A stretch of DNA of 23,104 bases from Amoebidium appalachense. Its lineage: Eukaryota > Protista > Ichthyosporea. The stretch lies in NCBI GenBank assembly GCA_963693365.1, contig CAVNZM010000009.1, positions 9,599,472 to 9,622,575 on the forward strand. Reading direction: 5' to 3'. This document shows, one piece after another, positions 11,123 through 23,104 of the stretch (its first letter is position 1; each line of letters starts with the position of its first letter). A program made the position numbers and the translations under genes. Under the pieces are notes generated by a model, which worked only from the letters and a program-made list of their open reading frames with translations, had not been told where the DNA came from and ran no database searches.

Positions 11123-11531
11123 ATTGGGATATTCGGGTTGGCTGTAAGGTTTTCCGGGTCGGGCCGAAGGCCTTAACGGGCCGCAGGCCCGTCTATTGGG
11201 CCATAGGCCCTGAGCCGCATAGGCCTGGGGCCCGGGGGCGCCGGGGACCGGGGGCCCGGCCCGGCCCGCGAGCCACCCCGCCCGGCCCGGCCCCCGGCCC
11301 GGCCCCGAATCTGCTAACCCGGGGGCCGGGCCGGGGGCCGAGATTCTGCTAACCCCGGGCCGGGCCGGGGCCGGGCCGGGCCGGGGTGGCTCGCGGCCGG
11401 GCCGGGCCCCGGCCCCGGCGCCCCGGGCCCAGGCCAGCGGTCTAGGCCTATGGCTCAATAGACGTGGCCTGCGGCCCGTTAGGCCTTTCGGTCCGACCCG
11501 AGTAACCCTACACCAACCCGAATATCCCAAT
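11123..11531. repeat. 409-bp GC-rich imperfect palindrome (foldback/MITE-like or hairpin-terminus-like)
   Basis: Perfect 19-bp outer arms ATTGGGATATTCGGGTTGG / CCAACCCGAATATCCCAAT. Imperfect pairing continues inward to CGCGAGCCACCCCG / CGGGGTGGCTCGCG. Confidence 0.9.
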
Positions 11532-12071
11532 ATTGCTTCATTCTGATTGGTTGTCACACCACGGGGTTTCCCGATTGTTCTTCGAGCGACATTTGCTATC
11601 ACTATCAGACAGTTCTCCAATATCAGAACAGAAAACGGTCTCTACCCAGATGGCCAGATGGCCAAGTCAAATTCAGTGTGTGGAAAAAGGTGGATAAAAC
11701 GGGATAAAACGGTGAGCAAAATGATCTGGCCATCTGGCCATGTGGCCATGGAATCTCTATATCTAAAAATAGCTGCCACTGCGCCGGGGCCTGGTTCCGG
11801 GAGGCAGGGGAGGGCAGGGGAGGCAGTGGGGGGGGGGGGGGCACGTGAGCACTCACTGGGGCCTGGTTCCGGGAGGCAGGGGAGCAGGGGGGGCACCCAG
11901 TGTGTGGGTGTGCATGTGGCAGGGGAGCAGGGGGGGGGGGCAGGGGGCAGGGGGGCAGGGGGGCTGGGGAGCAGGGGGGAGGGGGCTGGGGAGACTGGCA
12001 TGCCACTCACGGGGAGGATAGTGTATGTTGGCACGTGTGGGTGTGTGGGTGATAAAGGCGGAGAAGCCACA

Positions 12072-13056
12072 ACACGTGTGGTGTCTAAACAGCCTATAGG
12101 CATGCTCCGTGTGCAGGCACCAATTTCTACCCTCTTCTGGTTGGTGCCAAGAGGCAGCGCCCTACACGTGTGGTGTCTAAACAGCCTATAGGCATGCTCC
12201 GTGTGCAGGCACCAATTTCTACCCTCTTCTGGTTGGTGCCAAGAGGCAGCGCCCTACACGTGTGGTGTCTAAACAGCCTATAGGCATGCTCCGTGTGCAG
12301 GCACCAATTTCTACCCTCTTCTGGTTGGTGCCAAGAGGCAGCGCCCTACACGTGTGGTGTCTAAACAGCCTATAGGCATGCTCCGTGTGCAGGCACCAAT
12401 TTCTACCCTCTTCTGGTTGGTGCCAAGAGGCAGCGCCCTACACGTGTGGTGTCTAAACAGCCTATAGGCATGCTCCGTGTGCAGGCACCAATTTCTACCC
12501 TCTTCTGGTTGGTGCCAAGAGGCAGCGCCCTACACGTGTGGTGTCTAAACAGCCTATAGGCATGCTCCGTGTGCAGGCACCAATTTCTACTTTGTTGCTG
12601 CCTCTTCTGGTTGGTGCCAAGAGGCAGCGCCCTACACGTGTGGTGTCTAAACAGCCTATAGGCATGCTCCGTGTGCAGGCACCAATTTCTACCCTCTTCT
12701 GGTTGGTGCCAAGAGGCAGCGCCCTACACGTGTGGTGTCTAAACAGCCTATAGGCATGCTCCGTGTGCAGGCACCAATTTCTACCCTCTTCTGGTTGGTG
12801 CCAAGAGGCAGCGCCCTACACGTGTGGTGTCTAAACAGCCTATAGGCATGCTCCGTGTGCAGGCACCAATTTCTACCCTCTTCTGGTTGGTGCCAAGAGG
12901 CAGCGCCCTACACGTGTGGTGTCTAAACAGCCTATAGGCATGCTCCGTGTGCAGGCACCAATTTCTACCCTCTTCTGGTTGGTGCCAAGAGGCAGCGCCC
13001 TACACGTGTGGTGTCTAAACAGCCTATAGGCATGCTCCGTGTGCAGGCACCAATTT
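12072..13056 (+). repeat. 92-bp tandem array, about 10.6 near-identical units
   Basis: Unit starts at 12072, 12164, 12256 and so on; unit 6 has a 10-bp insertion TTTGTTGCTG. Confidence 0.97.
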
Positions 13057-13242
13057 GTTGTGCCTTCCTTTTTTGGTTAGATCTATACCCGGCCAATGGT
13101 TAGCAGCCACGGGTTTGTTTTCATCAAGTCTAGACGTGATACTTTGCCAACCATCAAGGCCGTTTGAGTGACAATGACCGTTGATTGGAGAGATCTATCC
13201 CATTGAGCCTTGGCACCATTGCTGTAAGCTGCTTTGTACCGT

Positions 13243-13255
13243 GGCATATAAAAGC
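13243..13255 (+). promoter_or_regulatory. TATA box GGCATATAAAAGC
   Basis: About 95 bp upstream of ATG 13350; CCAAT/ATTGG motifs further upstream. Confidence 0.65.
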
Positions 13256-13349
13256 AGCACACACGGTCACATTCACTCATTTCAACACTGACACTCAATA
13301 GTAAAAGGCGACACACAACAAACTTGTTTTTCAAACACTCACACGAAAC

Positions 13350-14574
13350 ATGGATTCTTGGAAAGAGGAGCTTCAACAGCTGCAGAAGCGCTTTGATTTT
13401 CTGTACACGGACCATTCGTCTCGCTTAACGGCCCTGCACACCGACGTCACCAGCCTCCGCACCGACCTCACCAGCCTCCGCAGTCAAGTGACCAATGAGA
13501 ATGCTGCGCGTACCCCCCGACCCCCCCAACCCCAGCCCTCTGATGTAGAGGCACGACTGAGGGCAGCCGAAGAGCAGATCAAGACCCTGCAGGCCGAGCT
13601 TGCCAGCCTGCAACGGGCTGCAGCACCCCGTCGGGATGGCCAGGTGGCCTATGAAAACTACATTTTCAGTGGCCCTCGCAAGACTACCATTGCCGCCAAC
13701 ACCACCACTGTGACTGCTGACCCCACCCCTGCCGCCAACACCACCACTGTGACTGCCCCCACCCCTGCCGCAAAGACCACCCCTGTGACTGCCCCCACCC
13801 CTGTCGCAAAGACCGCCCCTGTGACTGCCCCCACCCCTGCCGCAAAGACCACCAGGGCCTGTGACTGCCCCCACCCCTGTCGCAAAGACCGCCCCTGTGA
13901 CTGCCCCCACCCCTGCCGCCAAGACCACTCCTGCCAAGACCACCCCTACCACCAAGACCACTCCTGCCAAGACCACCCCTACCACCAAGACCACTCCTGC
14001 CAAGACCACCCCTACCACCAAGACCACTCCTGCCAAGACCACCCCTGCCGCTAAGCCCAGGCCCAAGCACACCAAAACACCTGAGACTTCGTTGCATGAC
14101 CATGCGATGGACCTCGATGCACAGCTAACTAGTGTGAGGGGGGAGCTCCAGAATGCTCGAGAGCGTGTCAAAGAGGCAAAGGCGGCTGAAGATGAAATGG
14201 CGGAGGGCCTGGCCATTGCTGCTGTGTGTGCAGCCCAAAACACCATAAAAAGCATCCGAAGGAAGATTCTGCGACGGGAGAAGAACTTGAAGGCATACAC
14301 AGGTGGTAATGAGTCTGTCTCTTCACCTGCCTCACCCGCCAAACGCGTCCATGATCAATGTGATTGGGACTCAGATGAAGCATTCAACCCCAAGCGGCTC
14401 AAACGACGGGCAAATCAGGTACTCGATGATATGACAGATGACGAATCTGCGTCTGATCGTGAGTCGGTCGTGTATGCCCGCAAACCTGAACCCAAACATA
14501 AACAAACTGAAGAAATTCCCCTCATTGATCTTGACCAGGAAGAGTTTGACCAGTATGAGCATGAGATGTACTGA
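13350..14574 (+). CDS. Hypothetical protein: N-terminal coiled coil, Thr/Pro/Ala/Lys repeat linker, second coiled coil, NLS-like PKRLKRR, acidic tail; one frameshift near 13855
   Basis: ORFs 13350..14054 and 13861..14574 join if 4 extra bases (AGGG) in one repeat unit are removed; intronless. Confidence 0.75.
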
Positions 14575-21449: not shown

Positions 21450-21519
21450 GATTCTACAACAACCCCGAATGAATTCTATCACTTGAAAGCACTGGCATGG
21501 CATGACCGTAGCGCCATTC

Positions 21520-21710
21520 GATTGGATATCTCGCTAGATTACGCCTCACGCGCTGATTGGTCAGCCGCGATTGGATCGTAAATATAAATTCCGATTGGAT
21601 CGTGTGGTTACATCTCATGGTAAGTCAATTTTGATTCCATCAGATAAATCATGTCCATCCAATCAAAACGCGACAGCTGTCAGCCTTGCCCTGCCTGGCA
21701 GGTATAAAAT
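21520..21710 (+). promoter_or_regulatory. CCAAT-box cluster plus TATA box (GGTATAAAAT at 21701)
   Basis: Four GATTGG and one CCAATC, then a TATA about 60 bp upstream of ATG 21768. Confidence 0.6.
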
Positions 21711-21767
21711 GCCGCGACTCAGCGCTATGCTGACACTTTCCACTCTTCCTGTTTTTCTTCACCAACA

Positions 21768-22245
21768 ATGTCCGGCACACCATCTGCAAAGGCCGGCCCT
21801 GACCCAGCCGGGCAGCCTGCCAGTCCACGGCCCCCAGGGTCATTTGCCACGTGGCCTCCCGAATGGCAGCAGTACCTGTACGAGGAGGCAAAGCGTGACC
21901 GCTACCGTGCGCGCGCCAGCGAGCGGGAGATGCAGCTCAAGTACAAGTTGCTGCACAAGAAGTACAAGCGCCTCAAGACCAGCGTGAGCCTGTACCGTAT
22001 GACATGGAGGAGCCTGAAGAACCTCAGCGACCCCGAGACCTCCGCCGAGGAGTCCCCCACCGAGGAGCGCCCCATTCGCATCTTGAGCTCCGAGGAGGAG
22101 CGCCTCCACAAGAAGCCCCCCCGAGAAGAAGCGCGCGCGGTCTCCCGAGGACACTTCGGCGCCCACCGAGAAGAAGCGCGCGCGGTCGCCCGAGGACACT
22201 TCGGCGCCCACCGAGAAGCGCAGCCGTGCTGGACACGAGGAGTAA
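21768..22245 (+). CDS. Hypothetical protein: basic coiled coil, acidic linker, likely (EKKRARSPEDTSAPT)x2 tail after a +1 shift in a C7 run
   Basis: ORF 21768..22403. Removing one C at 22116-22122 gives NLS-like repeats and a TAA at 22243 overlapping AATAAA. Confidence 0.65.
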
Positions 22246-22658
22246 ATAAAAATTGCCACTTCCTCTTCCACACCTGTGTTGTGGACCGTAGCGCTTGCAT
22301 GCATGGTGCTGCTCGTGCTGCTTGCCGCGTGCTGGCGCTCAGGGGGGGGGGGGGGGGGGGTCTTGTTGTTTGTGTTAATGCACCCACAGCGTGCCCTTTG
22401 TGACACTTGCAGTGGGTTGTTGTTGTTGCCTTTTACAACCACCGCTCTGGACACAAGATCGAACAGCTATCAAATTGACCATATATATGATAAAGAAAAA
22501 CAAGGTTGCCAAAGATCATTGTAGCAGTGCGTCCTCCGTCTTGGCGCGCCCTACGTCCCAGCGGTTTTTAGGTTCCATTAGCACTGCGATGCATAATGTC
22601 TGTGTGTGCTCCCCGAGTTGCTGGGGAGGGGGCGCTCCAAAGTATCTCTTCGGAAGGT

Positions 22659-22913
22659 ATGACTTCTCCGAACATTGCAAACCTGAGATTTGACAACCCG
22701 AGTAACTCGTGGTTGCGCAGGGATGACATTGCCGCCGACCCGCACGAGTACCACCTGACCATCGACAACAACACGCGCTTCATGCTCTACATGGGCACTT
22801 CATTGGACGACCATGATGCACAGCTCAAGTGCGCTTCGATGTGGAGGGGCATAGCGCTTCCATGCATGGTGCTGCTCGTGCTGCTTGCTGGCGTGCTGGC
22901 GTACAGGTGGTAG
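22659..22913 (+). CDS. Small protein, 84 aa, with a C-terminal transmembrane segment
   Basis: Ends GIALPCMVLLVLLAGVLAYRW*; GC-rich third codon positions. Confidence 0.5.
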   Translation: MTSPNIANLRFDNPSNSWLRRDDIAADPHEYHLTIDNNTRFMLYMGTSLDDHDAQLKCASMWRGIALPCMVLLVLLAGVLAYRW

Positions 22914-23104
22914 GGGGGGGTGGGGGTGGGGGTGGGGTTCTCAGGTGGGCTGGTTGTTGCAGTGGTTGAAGCTGTTGAACCGTTGAGGCTGGGTGGGTCA
23001 ACCCATACACACACAGACCTATCCCACTTCTCTATTGAATACCCCACCTTCAACAGCTTCAACAGCTTCAATTCTTCAACAAGGGTATGAAAGGAGCAGG
23101 CATG

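Follow-up and report, generated by a model that had tools for sequence, protein, structure and literature searches.

The preliminary description of this locus mentioned Plavaka-bearing giant repeats from ichthyosporeans. Such repeats, intron-poor and flanked by Plavaka elements, are indeed described for the Amoebidium genome in the text of PMC11244446, which is silent on how they multiply. The stretch of 23,104 nucleotides of A. appalachense analysed here (contig CAVNZM010000009.1; hereafter, the window) raises this question for a single locus: is the block at 11123-23104, next to a Plavaka transposase gene, the cargo of a transposon, the remnant of a virus, a heap of unrelated repeats or a replicon of its own? 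Our answer, to which we give a probability of about 0.55, is that the block represents one damaged member of a modular DNA family present in many copies. In this family, an SF3 helicase gene is followed by inverted iterons; it would likely be a self-amplifying replicon devoid of capsid and polymerase, and its join with Plavaka would probably be secondary. The observations behind this best explanation are the class of the helicase, the layout of the iterons, the lack of any detected primase, polymerase or capsid in the 12 kb, the unbroken helicase contigs in public runs, the uneven depth of the modules and the other flanks found at both edges of a palindrome (Table 1).

Table 1. Annotated features of the window (positions in nucleotides).
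Feature	Position	Strand	Evidence
Plavaka transposase gene, multi-exon, 5'-truncated; exons about 10222-10146, 9618-9373, 8213-7700, 7091-6934, 6292-6088, about 5595-5365, about 2620-1961	1961-10222	-	PF18759, splice sites
Inverted copy of Plavaka exon 6074-6296, where the gene's 5' part is lost	10220-10440	+	97.8% over 223 nt
Imperfect palindrome, 409 bp, 75% GC	11123-11531	.	self-alignment, folding, contig flanks
Origin-like site 1: TGGCCA/ATGGCC words, 8-bp period, two facing sets; no adjoining helicase	11646-11750	.	architecture scan
Tandem array, 92-bp unit x 10.6	12072-13056	+	repeat scan
Orphan gene 1 (TATA at 13247, frameshift near 13855), with a coiled coil, Thr/Pro/Ala repeats and an acidic tail	13350-14574	+	ORF reading
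Tandem array, about 22-bp unit with CCCTAA core, 36 CCCTAA; x 38 at 15035-15903	15035-15951	+	repeat scan
Orphan gene 2 (TATA at 16865, frameshifted), with a coiled coil followed by basic/Ser-rich repeats	16031-16779	-	ORF reading
Single inverted copy of 92-bp unit just upstream of helicase	17459-17564	-	95% over 106 nt
SF3 helicase, NrS-1/DUF5906 type	17632-19027	+	Pfam, structure-chain profile matches
Iteron cluster, likely origin: 14 TGAGTA, 9-bp period, inverted sets	19010-19345	.	shuffle test, architecture scan
C2H2 zinc-finger gene, 184 aa	19385-19939	+	PF00096 (zf-C2H2) E 8e-21
Orphan gene, 172 aa; TATA at 20753	20182-20700	-	ORF reading
Orphan gene: coiled coil + basic repeats; frameshift near 22116; TATA at 21703	21768-22245	+	ORF reading
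Short orphan ORF, hydrophobic C-terminal stretch	22596-22913	+	ORF reading
Origin-like site 3: GTTGAA words, 9-bp period, two facing sets; window ends 30 nt later	22957-23080	.	architecture scan

Structure of the block

The switch of DNA type reported at about 11.1 kb is borne out by simple repeats, which cover 3390 of the 9223 nt at 1900-11122 (37%) versus 56 of the 11982 nt at 11123-23104 (0.5%). The genes beyond this point had been presented as compact, intronless and similar in their promoters, a picture that holds in part: the genes are not very compact (about 44% of the block is coding, from summed ORF lengths), intronlessness is uncertain for the helicase, with a possible 3' splice site at 17617-17619 just before it, and the promoters have CCAAT clusters and a TATA box in common but are not homologous. 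We rejected promoter homology on the grounds that none of the 21 pairwise local-alignment scores exceeded the best one obtained from 100 shuffles.

At the border of the block, the long palindrome already noticed is well formed, with 164 of the 186 columns of its arms paired (8 mismatches, 14 gap columns), and the folding of 11080-11580 yields a z of -19.8, none of 100 shuffles folding as well. It is a separable unit, either foldback/MITE-like or a terminal hairpin. The idea that its bulges are poxvirus-like extra-helical bases was set aside: many of them lie in G/C runs where other contigs differ, so that they may be assembly errors. A scan of viral contigs for the pattern of the palindrome end returned no match. 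Both tandem arrays were recovered as well; Rfam had no match in 11000-23104, and the self-comparison showed no long repeat linking both halves of the window.

The zinc-finger gene proved correct, and so did the orphan genes. Orphan gene 1 has Pfam matches only below cutoff, of the coiled-coil type, while the 172-aa orphan gene has none in Pfam or PHROG and no usable one in the ESM Atlas, and is overlapped on the plus strand by an ORF with a Cys/His-rich tail (20240-21112). Finally, the hydrophobic C-terminal stretch of the short orphan ORF is partially duplicated at 22277-22361.

The helicase and its relatives

The helicase matches DUF5906 (E 1e-22) and the NrS-1 helicase chains 6K9C/6K9E (E 3e-16), and its Walker A motif (GTGK) is in frame. 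Previously described as D5-like, it is an SF3 helicase but not a full D5 primase-helicase, and the window copy is broken twice (frameshift near 18206; in-frame stop at 18917-18919). Profile searches of the helicase protein and of the upstream frames of the window found no primase, although one may be encoded by a further exon upstream or by a gene lying outside the window. By profile alignment, the C-terminal domain is homologous to Pox_D5-type C-termini, hhalign giving 98.7% against a set including Pox_D5-positive proteins vs at most 0.68% for 20 column-shuffled controls; we take Pox_D5 to be a winged helix.

In the helicase phylogeny that the preliminary description had called for, here a quick tree of 51 rows hand-picked out of 256 proteins, the window helicase belongs to a clade of 19 rows (SH-aLRT 98). 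Sixteen of its 18 relatives are 410-503 aa long, but such short lengths can be gene-calling artefacts, since P0113 (488 aa) and P0256 (668 aa) fall in the same 90% cluster. The two longer relatives have a predicted N-terminal domain of HUH-Rep fold, with no tyrosine common to them after the HUH motif. This call relies on the agreement of three methods and on an H-x-H/E motif; in the fold search with the domain model, ACT-type ferredoxin folds score near some Reps (Z 9.1 vs 9.7). The single-sequence model of P0114 is poor (pLDDT 35.7) and its fold search uninformative (best Z of 7.0), its HUH-like region matched only itself when used as a query, and a PDB sequence search returned nothing. No HUH domain was found in the window, where tblastn with the domain of the clade-mates gave a best E of 4.2. 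No DNA of a close relative was found in viral, metagenome or genome contigs.

The HUH fold of these two clade-mates might suggest that the block is what erosion has left of the replication region of an endogenous virus, be it Polinton-like, mriyavirus-like or a giant virus, with capsid and integrase genes that would either lie beyond 23104 or be lost. This would agree with an origin-like site only 30 nt before the end of the window and with SF3 helicases without polymerase being common in Polinton-like viruses and mriyaviruses, according to the texts of PMC11253617 and 10.64898/2026.06.19.733378. However, Pfam and PHROG searches of the main ORFs and of 63 of the 154 stop-to-stop frames found no capsid, polymerase (including pPolB), packaging ATPase, VLTF or integrase in the 12-kb block, which is cut at 23104 and where profiles may miss double jelly-roll capsids. 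In those frames of the window, neither pPolB nor RVE/YR integrase nor active HUH endonuclease was found, and the 12 kb up to the window end at 23104 had no match to NCLDV core genes and no tyrosine recombinase. Moreover, the genomes of Polinton-like viruses, mriyaviruses and giant viruses are gene-dense, unlike the block with its 44% of coding sequence, kb-long arrays and CCAAT/TATA promoters, and the six viral loci found are distant (22-33% identity in viral contigs). The Polinton or giant-virus identity envisaged earlier is not supported within the window, though it may hold for sequence beyond 23104, and we regard a viral remnant as improbable.

Iterons and a likely origin

The iteron-like cluster previously seen beside the helicase far exceeds chance, with 14 TGAGTA in 19010-19350, where 2000 shuffles gave 0.3 on average and never more than 4. 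Its first iteron overlaps the helicase stop codon, and AT content reaches 71% at 19160-19215, inside the cluster. Judging from sequence, this cluster is likely a replication origin. The architecture scan retrieved three loci in the block, compared to none in 100 shuffles and none in 1-11122; it also matched one of the six distant viral loci (L006), while an iteron-pair pattern scan of viral contigs gave three loci, none of them with a helicase.

This layout recalls the replication module of SaPIs and other PICIs, in which, as a rule given in the text of PMC9371898, 6-12 short iterons lie directly downstream of rep, with two or more in each orientation. Shared traits are an SF3 helicase, a D5-type C-terminal domain and short iterons that directly follow the gene, again with two or more in each orientation. 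In contrast, the block resides in a eukaryotic nuclear setting, its helicase is of the NrS-1 type, no primase gene was found, no helper phage or integrase was seen, and the spacer between its first two iteron sets is 50% AT, whereas SaPI origins have an AT-rich centre.

Copies of the block in public runs

Four public runs (X1, X6, X12 and X16) were chosen for containing 17100-21300; no RNA data set was among the runs listed. In X1, X6 and X12, a single contig each spans both breaks of the window helicase and has neither. Contig depth, which is not equivalent to copy number, is higher in the iteron bin than in the helicase (81 vs 13 in X1, 820 vs 312 in X6, 821 vs 85 in X12, 615 vs 27-203 in X16). 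At two joints, 17564>19017 (X1) and 17482>19017 (X12), the helicase is bypassed and the iterons are retained, although both joints have only 24-30 letters on their short side, where the 92-bp unit also fits 12 kb. In X6, single contigs have depths of 126 for the Plavaka exon, 312 for the helicase, 1042 for 16928-17398, 1658 for 20172-20418 and 1090 for 11533-11639; in X12, the corresponding values are 52-67 for Plavaka, 85 for the helicase and 507 for 17018-17251. Block modules other than the helicase exceed the depth of the Plavaka exon about 8-20 times in these two runs.

At face value, depth differences of about tenfold between adjoining modules, along with many joints and loose ends, four frameshifted ORFs in the window and two origin-like sites without a helicase, could reflect a passive mosaic, in which MITEs, satellites and orphan-gene repeats have accumulated independently where repeats abound, and a relic helicase and origin no longer drive anything. 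The helicase is nevertheless unbroken in the spanning contigs, and joints skipping whole genes bridge adjoining modules, which argues for one family with deletion derivatives. We hold the mosaic to be very unlikely.

The junction with Plavaka

The Plavaka transposase described beside the block is a real gene, but its 5' part is missing; it is a neighbour of the block and probably does not belong to it. Its exon at 9378-9629 matches PF18759 (E 9e-8). Of the 325 profile positions, 157-234 are matched at E 1e-7 and 132-149 at E 0.0017, whereas 1-131 are absent. In X16, a contig connects the exons at 6292 and 9373 with 672 nt between them, which equals the summed length of the two intervening exons. 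With a Plavaka exon as query, no homologue was found among 430 candidates.

The preliminary description had offered, as one option, the cargo of a single giant Plavaka element. In such a composite, similar in logic to Teratorn, the transposase would move the element, the helicase and origin would amplify it, and the palindrome would be a MITE landed at the border. The position of the block on the 5' side of the transposase is compatible with this, as are the giant cargo-bearing Plavakas reported for red algae in the text of 10.1101/2025.02.11.637652 and the usual Plavaka flanks of Amoebidium giant repeats in that of PMC11244446. Moreover, in X12 the contig with the helicase hardly exceeds those of the Plavaka side in depth (85 vs 52-97), and helicase-bearing copies could thus still be tied to Plavaka copies.

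Against it, an X12 contig with a Plavaka-exon-like depth of 68.7 tracks the Plavaka-side flank to 11123 and then departs from the window path for 61 letters, an X1 contig has a different flank attached to the start of the palindrome, two X16 contigs have other sequence before 11533, where one X6 contig starts, and no 11123>11533 joint appears among the 15 joints listed of 153. The far greater depth of the other block modules and the truncation of the Plavaka copy also weigh against a composite, as does the window itself, cut at 23104, in which no common terminus or target-site duplication was seen; for Plavaka (CMCT clade), the text of PMC12730594 gives termini TGT..ACA or CATCA..TGATG with a 2-3-bp TSD. 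Given block contigs up to 13 times deeper than Plavaka contigs and the other flanks at both palindrome edges, the join looks secondary, and the block is probably not regular cargo of Plavaka. The composite is thus weakened at the junction itself, and we consider it unlikely.

Comparison with known systems

The layout of the block fits that of the Amoebidium Plavaka giant repeats, i.e., a repetitive, intron-poor gene cluster flanked by Plavaka. In PMC11244446, the word 'helicase' is absent from both the main text and the supplement text, and no origin is named there; the tyrosine recombinases that the paper does name were not found in the 12-kb block. A further mark of such repeats is all-CG hypermethylation. 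Giant cargo-bearing Plavakas of red algae and fungi (10.1101/2025.02.11.637652; PMC12730594) and Teratorn (PMC10175614), as their texts present them, likewise combine a large DNA-transposase locus with extra genes and tandem arrays. Their cargo, however, is PAG1-3 or TET/JBP in the former and a whole herpesvirus in the latter, whereas no common termini were seen for the block and its join appears secondary. Polinton-like viruses and mriyaviruses resemble it in that an SF3 helicase takes the place of the DNA polymerase, and the HUH domains of mriyaviruses are predicted to be active (PMC11253617, 10.64898/2026.06.19.733378); the block differs in the lack of detected capsid, ATPase, VLTF and integrase, in its low coding density and in its long arrays.

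A last parallel is with viral initiators of another SF3 lineage. SV40 large T and papillomavirus E1 are SF3 helicase-initiators without primase, which use the host Pol alpha-primase and polymerases, and the inactive HUH-fold domain predicted in two clade-mates adds to the likeness. Yet the block helicase belongs to the DUF5906/NrS-1 lineage, the window protein has no detected HUH domain, and no capsid was found.

A candidate engine for giant repeats

The earlier suggestion of a replicon lacking a capsid but equipped with an origin and a helicase of its own is supported in outline by the SF3 helicase, the SaPI-like inverted iterons, the many copies and the helicase-skipping derivatives that keep the iterons. 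Under this reading, the repeat family would likely be amplified through its own origin, without a capsid. The helicase would bind TGAGTA via its C-terminal winged-helix-type domain, load itself and melt DNA in the manner of SaPI Rep. With no primase found, host Pol alpha-primase and polymerases would be borrowed, as for large T and E1. Copies without helicase but retaining iterons may be amplified in trans, and the two other origin-like sites may be served by helicase paralogues absent from the window. Candidate routes of insertion are a tyrosine recombinase encoded outside the window, a Plavaka enzyme or foldback-mediated rearrangement.

More tentatively, and with odds well below even, the block might represent a class of selfish DNA in eukaryotic nuclei that has not been described before. 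These capsid-less, polymerase-less replicons would be driven by a self-loading NrS-1-type SF3 helicase reading its own iteron code, in the style of phage satellites, with paralogues using different iteron words and origin-only non-autonomous derivatives. Some relatives would have independently gained a dead HUH domain like that of large T/E1, giant repeats would be built by over-replication, and the 409-bp palindrome may be the hairpin end of a linear free form.

No description of a helicase-plus-iteron module in eukaryotic repeats turned up in the literature searched, which mostly did not extend to subscription papers, bioRxiv supplements and figure images. To the intron-poor giant repeats already described beside Plavaka, the window adds a concrete candidate engine, i.e., a helicase-initiator with a six-base iteron origin, and related helicases in public assemblies, at least 18 of them, form a clade without a name. 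Should the composite be true instead, it would offer a parallel to Teratorn in a microbial eukaryote. If the replicon works as we propose, it would be a bacterial-satellite-style replicon in a eukaryotic nucleus, with neither capsid nor polymerase, and would also be another way of arriving at the large T/E1 design.

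Composition of the Block

The change of DNA type placed by the preliminary description at about 11.1 kb is borne out by the distribution of simple repeats, which occupy 3390 of the 9223 nt between 1900 and 11122 vs. 56 of the 11,982 nt from 11123 onwards. The palindrome, the two tandem arrays, the zinc-finger gene, the orphan genes and the SF3 helicase with its iteron cluster, all announced for the block (11123–23104), are present as well (see Table), and the coding share of the block is about 44%. Its promoters had also been described as similar; the TATA boxes of the orphan genes lie 50–115 nt upstream, and CCAAT clusters occur at several, but on comparison the promoters proved not to be homologous. 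The block is present in 20 of the 23 public sequencing runs listed (at least half of its words in 19 of these), four of which (X1, X6, X12, X16) were compared in detail with the window.

Table. Features of the Plavaka gene and the block.
Feature	Coordinates	Strand	Remarks
Plavaka gene	about 10222 to 1961	minus	
Palindrome	11123–11531		409 bp, 75% GC, first feature of the block
92-bp tandem array	12072–13056		
22-bp tandem array	15035–15951		CCCTAA core
C2H2 zinc-finger gene	in block		E = 8e-21
DUF5906 helicase	in block		E = 1e-22
Orphan ORFs	in block		five

The telomeric hexamer CCCTAA occurs 36 times in the 22-bp array, which could be a binding site for telomere proteins or skew insertion. 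The ORF at 20240–21112 (+) ends in a Cys/His tail (20990–21112; C-x3-C...W-F-H-x2-C) that on visual inspection resembles a portion of a PHD finger and has no match in Pfam. At 15980–16931, contigs of X16, the run with the spliced Plavaka contig, are very deep over orphan gene 2 (one reaches 18,289) and shallow (25–30) over the promoter region next to it, which hints weakly at strong transcription, RNA levels not being readable from contigs.

The Helicase and Its Relatives

The helicase of the block is of the NrS-1 type (PDB 6K9C/6K9E, E = 3e-16). Its window copy is broken twice, by a frameshift near 18206 and by a stop at 18917–18919; both breaks are absent from single contigs of X1, X6 and X12, and X16, which spans only the second, lacks the stop too. 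A profile search of 1.84 billion representatives returned a small set of 460–503-aa proteins far above the rest. The helicase phylogeny proposed in the preliminary description, here a quick tree of 51 rows picked by hand, places the window protein in a 19-row clade (SH-aLRT 98) separate from the long helicases fused to a primase, and 16 of its 18 relatives there measure 410–503 aa. No primase domain was found in the nearest ones, P0001 and P0002 (identity 62–64%, 470–471 aa), nor upstream of the helicase within the window. By hhalign, the C-terminal domain of the clade has homologues in a protein set with Pox_D5-positive members (98.7%, against ≤0.68% in 20 shuffled controls).

Two of the 18 clade relatives, P0114 and P0256, have an additional N-terminal domain, which resembles the HUH domains of CRESS-virus Reps in the ESM Atlas (0.94) and viral Reps in Foldseek (TYLCV Rep, E = 8e-4). 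VIA-align is consistent with this, giving Z 9.7 for Vientovirus Rep (103 aligned at rmsd 2.6), 8.5 for SV40 large T and up to 9.1 for ACT domains. Because the motif common to these two proteins (H-I-H / H-L-E) is followed by no tyrosine shared by both, their HUH-fold domain is likely a non-cutting one that would bind the origin. As in large T and E1, an HUH-Rep fold (residues 30–145 in P0114 and the equivalent region of P0256) without a common tyrosine is fused to an SF3 helicase, but the helicase belongs to another lineage, the NrS-1 type. No such HUH domain was found in the window. However, since P0256 (668 aa) and another relative, P0113 (488 aa), fall in one 90% cluster, and since a possible splice acceptor lies at 17617–17619, the lack of primase and HUH domains may not hold for the complete gene.

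Iterons and Candidate Origins

TGAGTA occurs 14 times in 19010–19350 (shuffles: mean 0.3, maximum 4, n = 2000; best-hexamer control: maximum 5, n = 500), with a 9-bp period and in facing sets, the first word overlapping the helicase stop codon. In SaPI origins (PMC9371898), 6–12 short iterons follow rep directly, with two or more in each orientation, and are recognized by a winged helix at the C-terminus of the helicase, which loads itself. The block likewise has short facing iterons directly behind its SF3 helicase gene, but the first spacer between iteron sets is 50% AT, and a 71% AT stretch follows only after the second set. An architecture scan recovered three loci in the block, 11646–11750 (TGGCCA), 19025–19274 (TGAGTA) and 22965–23064 (GTTGAA), and no inverted-iteron architecture in 100 shuffles or in the left half of the window, which holds no helicase for the TGGCCA and GTTGAA sites in either half. 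The same architecture (GTCACA) was seen in a distant viral helicase locus (L006:12105–12248), about 1.4 kb after the match.

We consider helicase–iteron self-replication with host primase and polymerases to be the best reading of the block, at odds slightly better than even (about 0.55). The helicase would bind its own iterons, load itself and unwind the DNA, and the host primase and polymerases would copy the element. Large T and E1 depend on host Pol alpha-primase.

Modules in Public Runs

Contig depths cannot be read as copy numbers, and single-contig values are only roughly comparable within one run: in X6, depths are 126 for a Plavaka exon, 146–160 for the flank, 312 for the helicase, 317 for the zinc finger, and 1042, 1090 and 1658 for the modules at 16928–17398, 11533–11639 and 20172–20418; in X12, they are 52–67 for Plavaka, 69–97 for the flank, 85 for the helicase and 507 for 17018–17251. 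In each of the four runs, the iteron bin exceeds the helicase in depth. The helicase is skipped by two joints (contigs linking two window positions without the DNA between), both landing at 19017 with short sides of 24–30 letters, and further joints, with short sides as well, skip the zinc finger or 21685–22213. This pattern of depths and joints fits one modular family with origin-keeping deletion derivatives; that the block is a passive mosaic seems improbable.

The Plavaka Gene and Its Link to the Block

Two Plavaka exons match positions 132–149 and 157–234 of PF18759 (of 325), positions 1–131 being absent from the gene, and at its break lies one of the later exons in inverted copy (10220–10440, 97.8%). 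In an X16 contig, 672 letters separate the exon that ends at 9373 from the one that starts at 6292, exactly as many as the two intervening exons add up to (514 + 158). This spacing speaks for the exon model; it also points to X16 being RNA or containing an intron-less Plavaka copy, although the run is classed, as a guess, as DNA. The inverted copy starts exactly at the first base of the exon (10224 = 6292) and takes in 14 nt of intron, and the intron stretch 6309–6613 is duplicated at 9726–10036; RNA-guided or splice-site-guided rearrangement is possible for these duplicates. The intron at 3150–5190 is a tandem array of ~300-bp units, in each of which a CA run, a C run and an A run accompany a conserved core of 60 bp. 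The stretch 8564–9210, also intronic, holds a direct repeat of 274 bp (92%) together with a short inverted repeat and may be a small element that inserted there. At the left edge of the window (1–310, minus strand) is an ORF-like stretch with a basic, KPKK-rich start near 390.

The arms of the palindrome pair in 164 of 186 columns, and its folding (z −19.8) is equalled in none of 100 shuffles. In an X1 contig, 11123 adjoins another flank, more than 255 letters long; an X12 contig of Plavaka-like depth follows 10977–11123 and then leaves the window’s path for 61 letters; before 11533, two X16 contigs carry other sequence and an X6 contig begins. These contigs place breakpoints at both edges of the palindrome and so mark it as a separable unit, in the simplest reading a foldback/MITE-like element, though it may also be a terminal hairpin. 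Since, among 15 of the 153 joints, none links 11123 to about 11533, a simple empty site is unlikely; no matching TSD was found.

The preliminary description had offered either an endogenised capsid-less replicon or the cargo of a large Plavaka element with its own origin and helicase. The former is favoured here, whereas the latter is weakened by the breakpoints, the link between Plavaka copy and block looking like an insertion or rearrangement. True Plavaka cargo is accordingly unlikely, even though the close helicase and Plavaka depths of X12 speak for it and against a secondary link. The window fits the description of the Amoebidium Plavaka giant repeats in PMC11244446, whose searchable text contains the word “helicase” 0 times (Fig. 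S4C may label one); in red algae and fungi, the cargo of giant Plavakas is of a different kind (10.1101/2025.02.11.637652; PMC12730594).

Viral Genes and the Nature of the Element

Teratorn provides a precedent for a transposon–virus composite (PMC10175614). Capsid, pPolB, packaging ATPase and integrase had no match in the main ORFs or in 63 of the 154 stop-to-stop frames of at least 45 aa in the window (which ends at 23104), frames inside the arrays and palindrome, those already tested and many short ones being omitted; an eroded endogenous virus is thus doubtful. Polinton-like viruses and mriyaviruses have SF3 helicases without polymerase but are defined by virion genes (PMC11253617; 10.64898/2026.06.19.733378). 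In the literature searched, no helicase module that works with iterons and lacks a primase was found described for a eukaryotic repeat. Under self-replication by helicase and iterons, origin-only derivatives would be amplified in trans, and, more tentatively, such nuclear replicons without capsids may form a new class.
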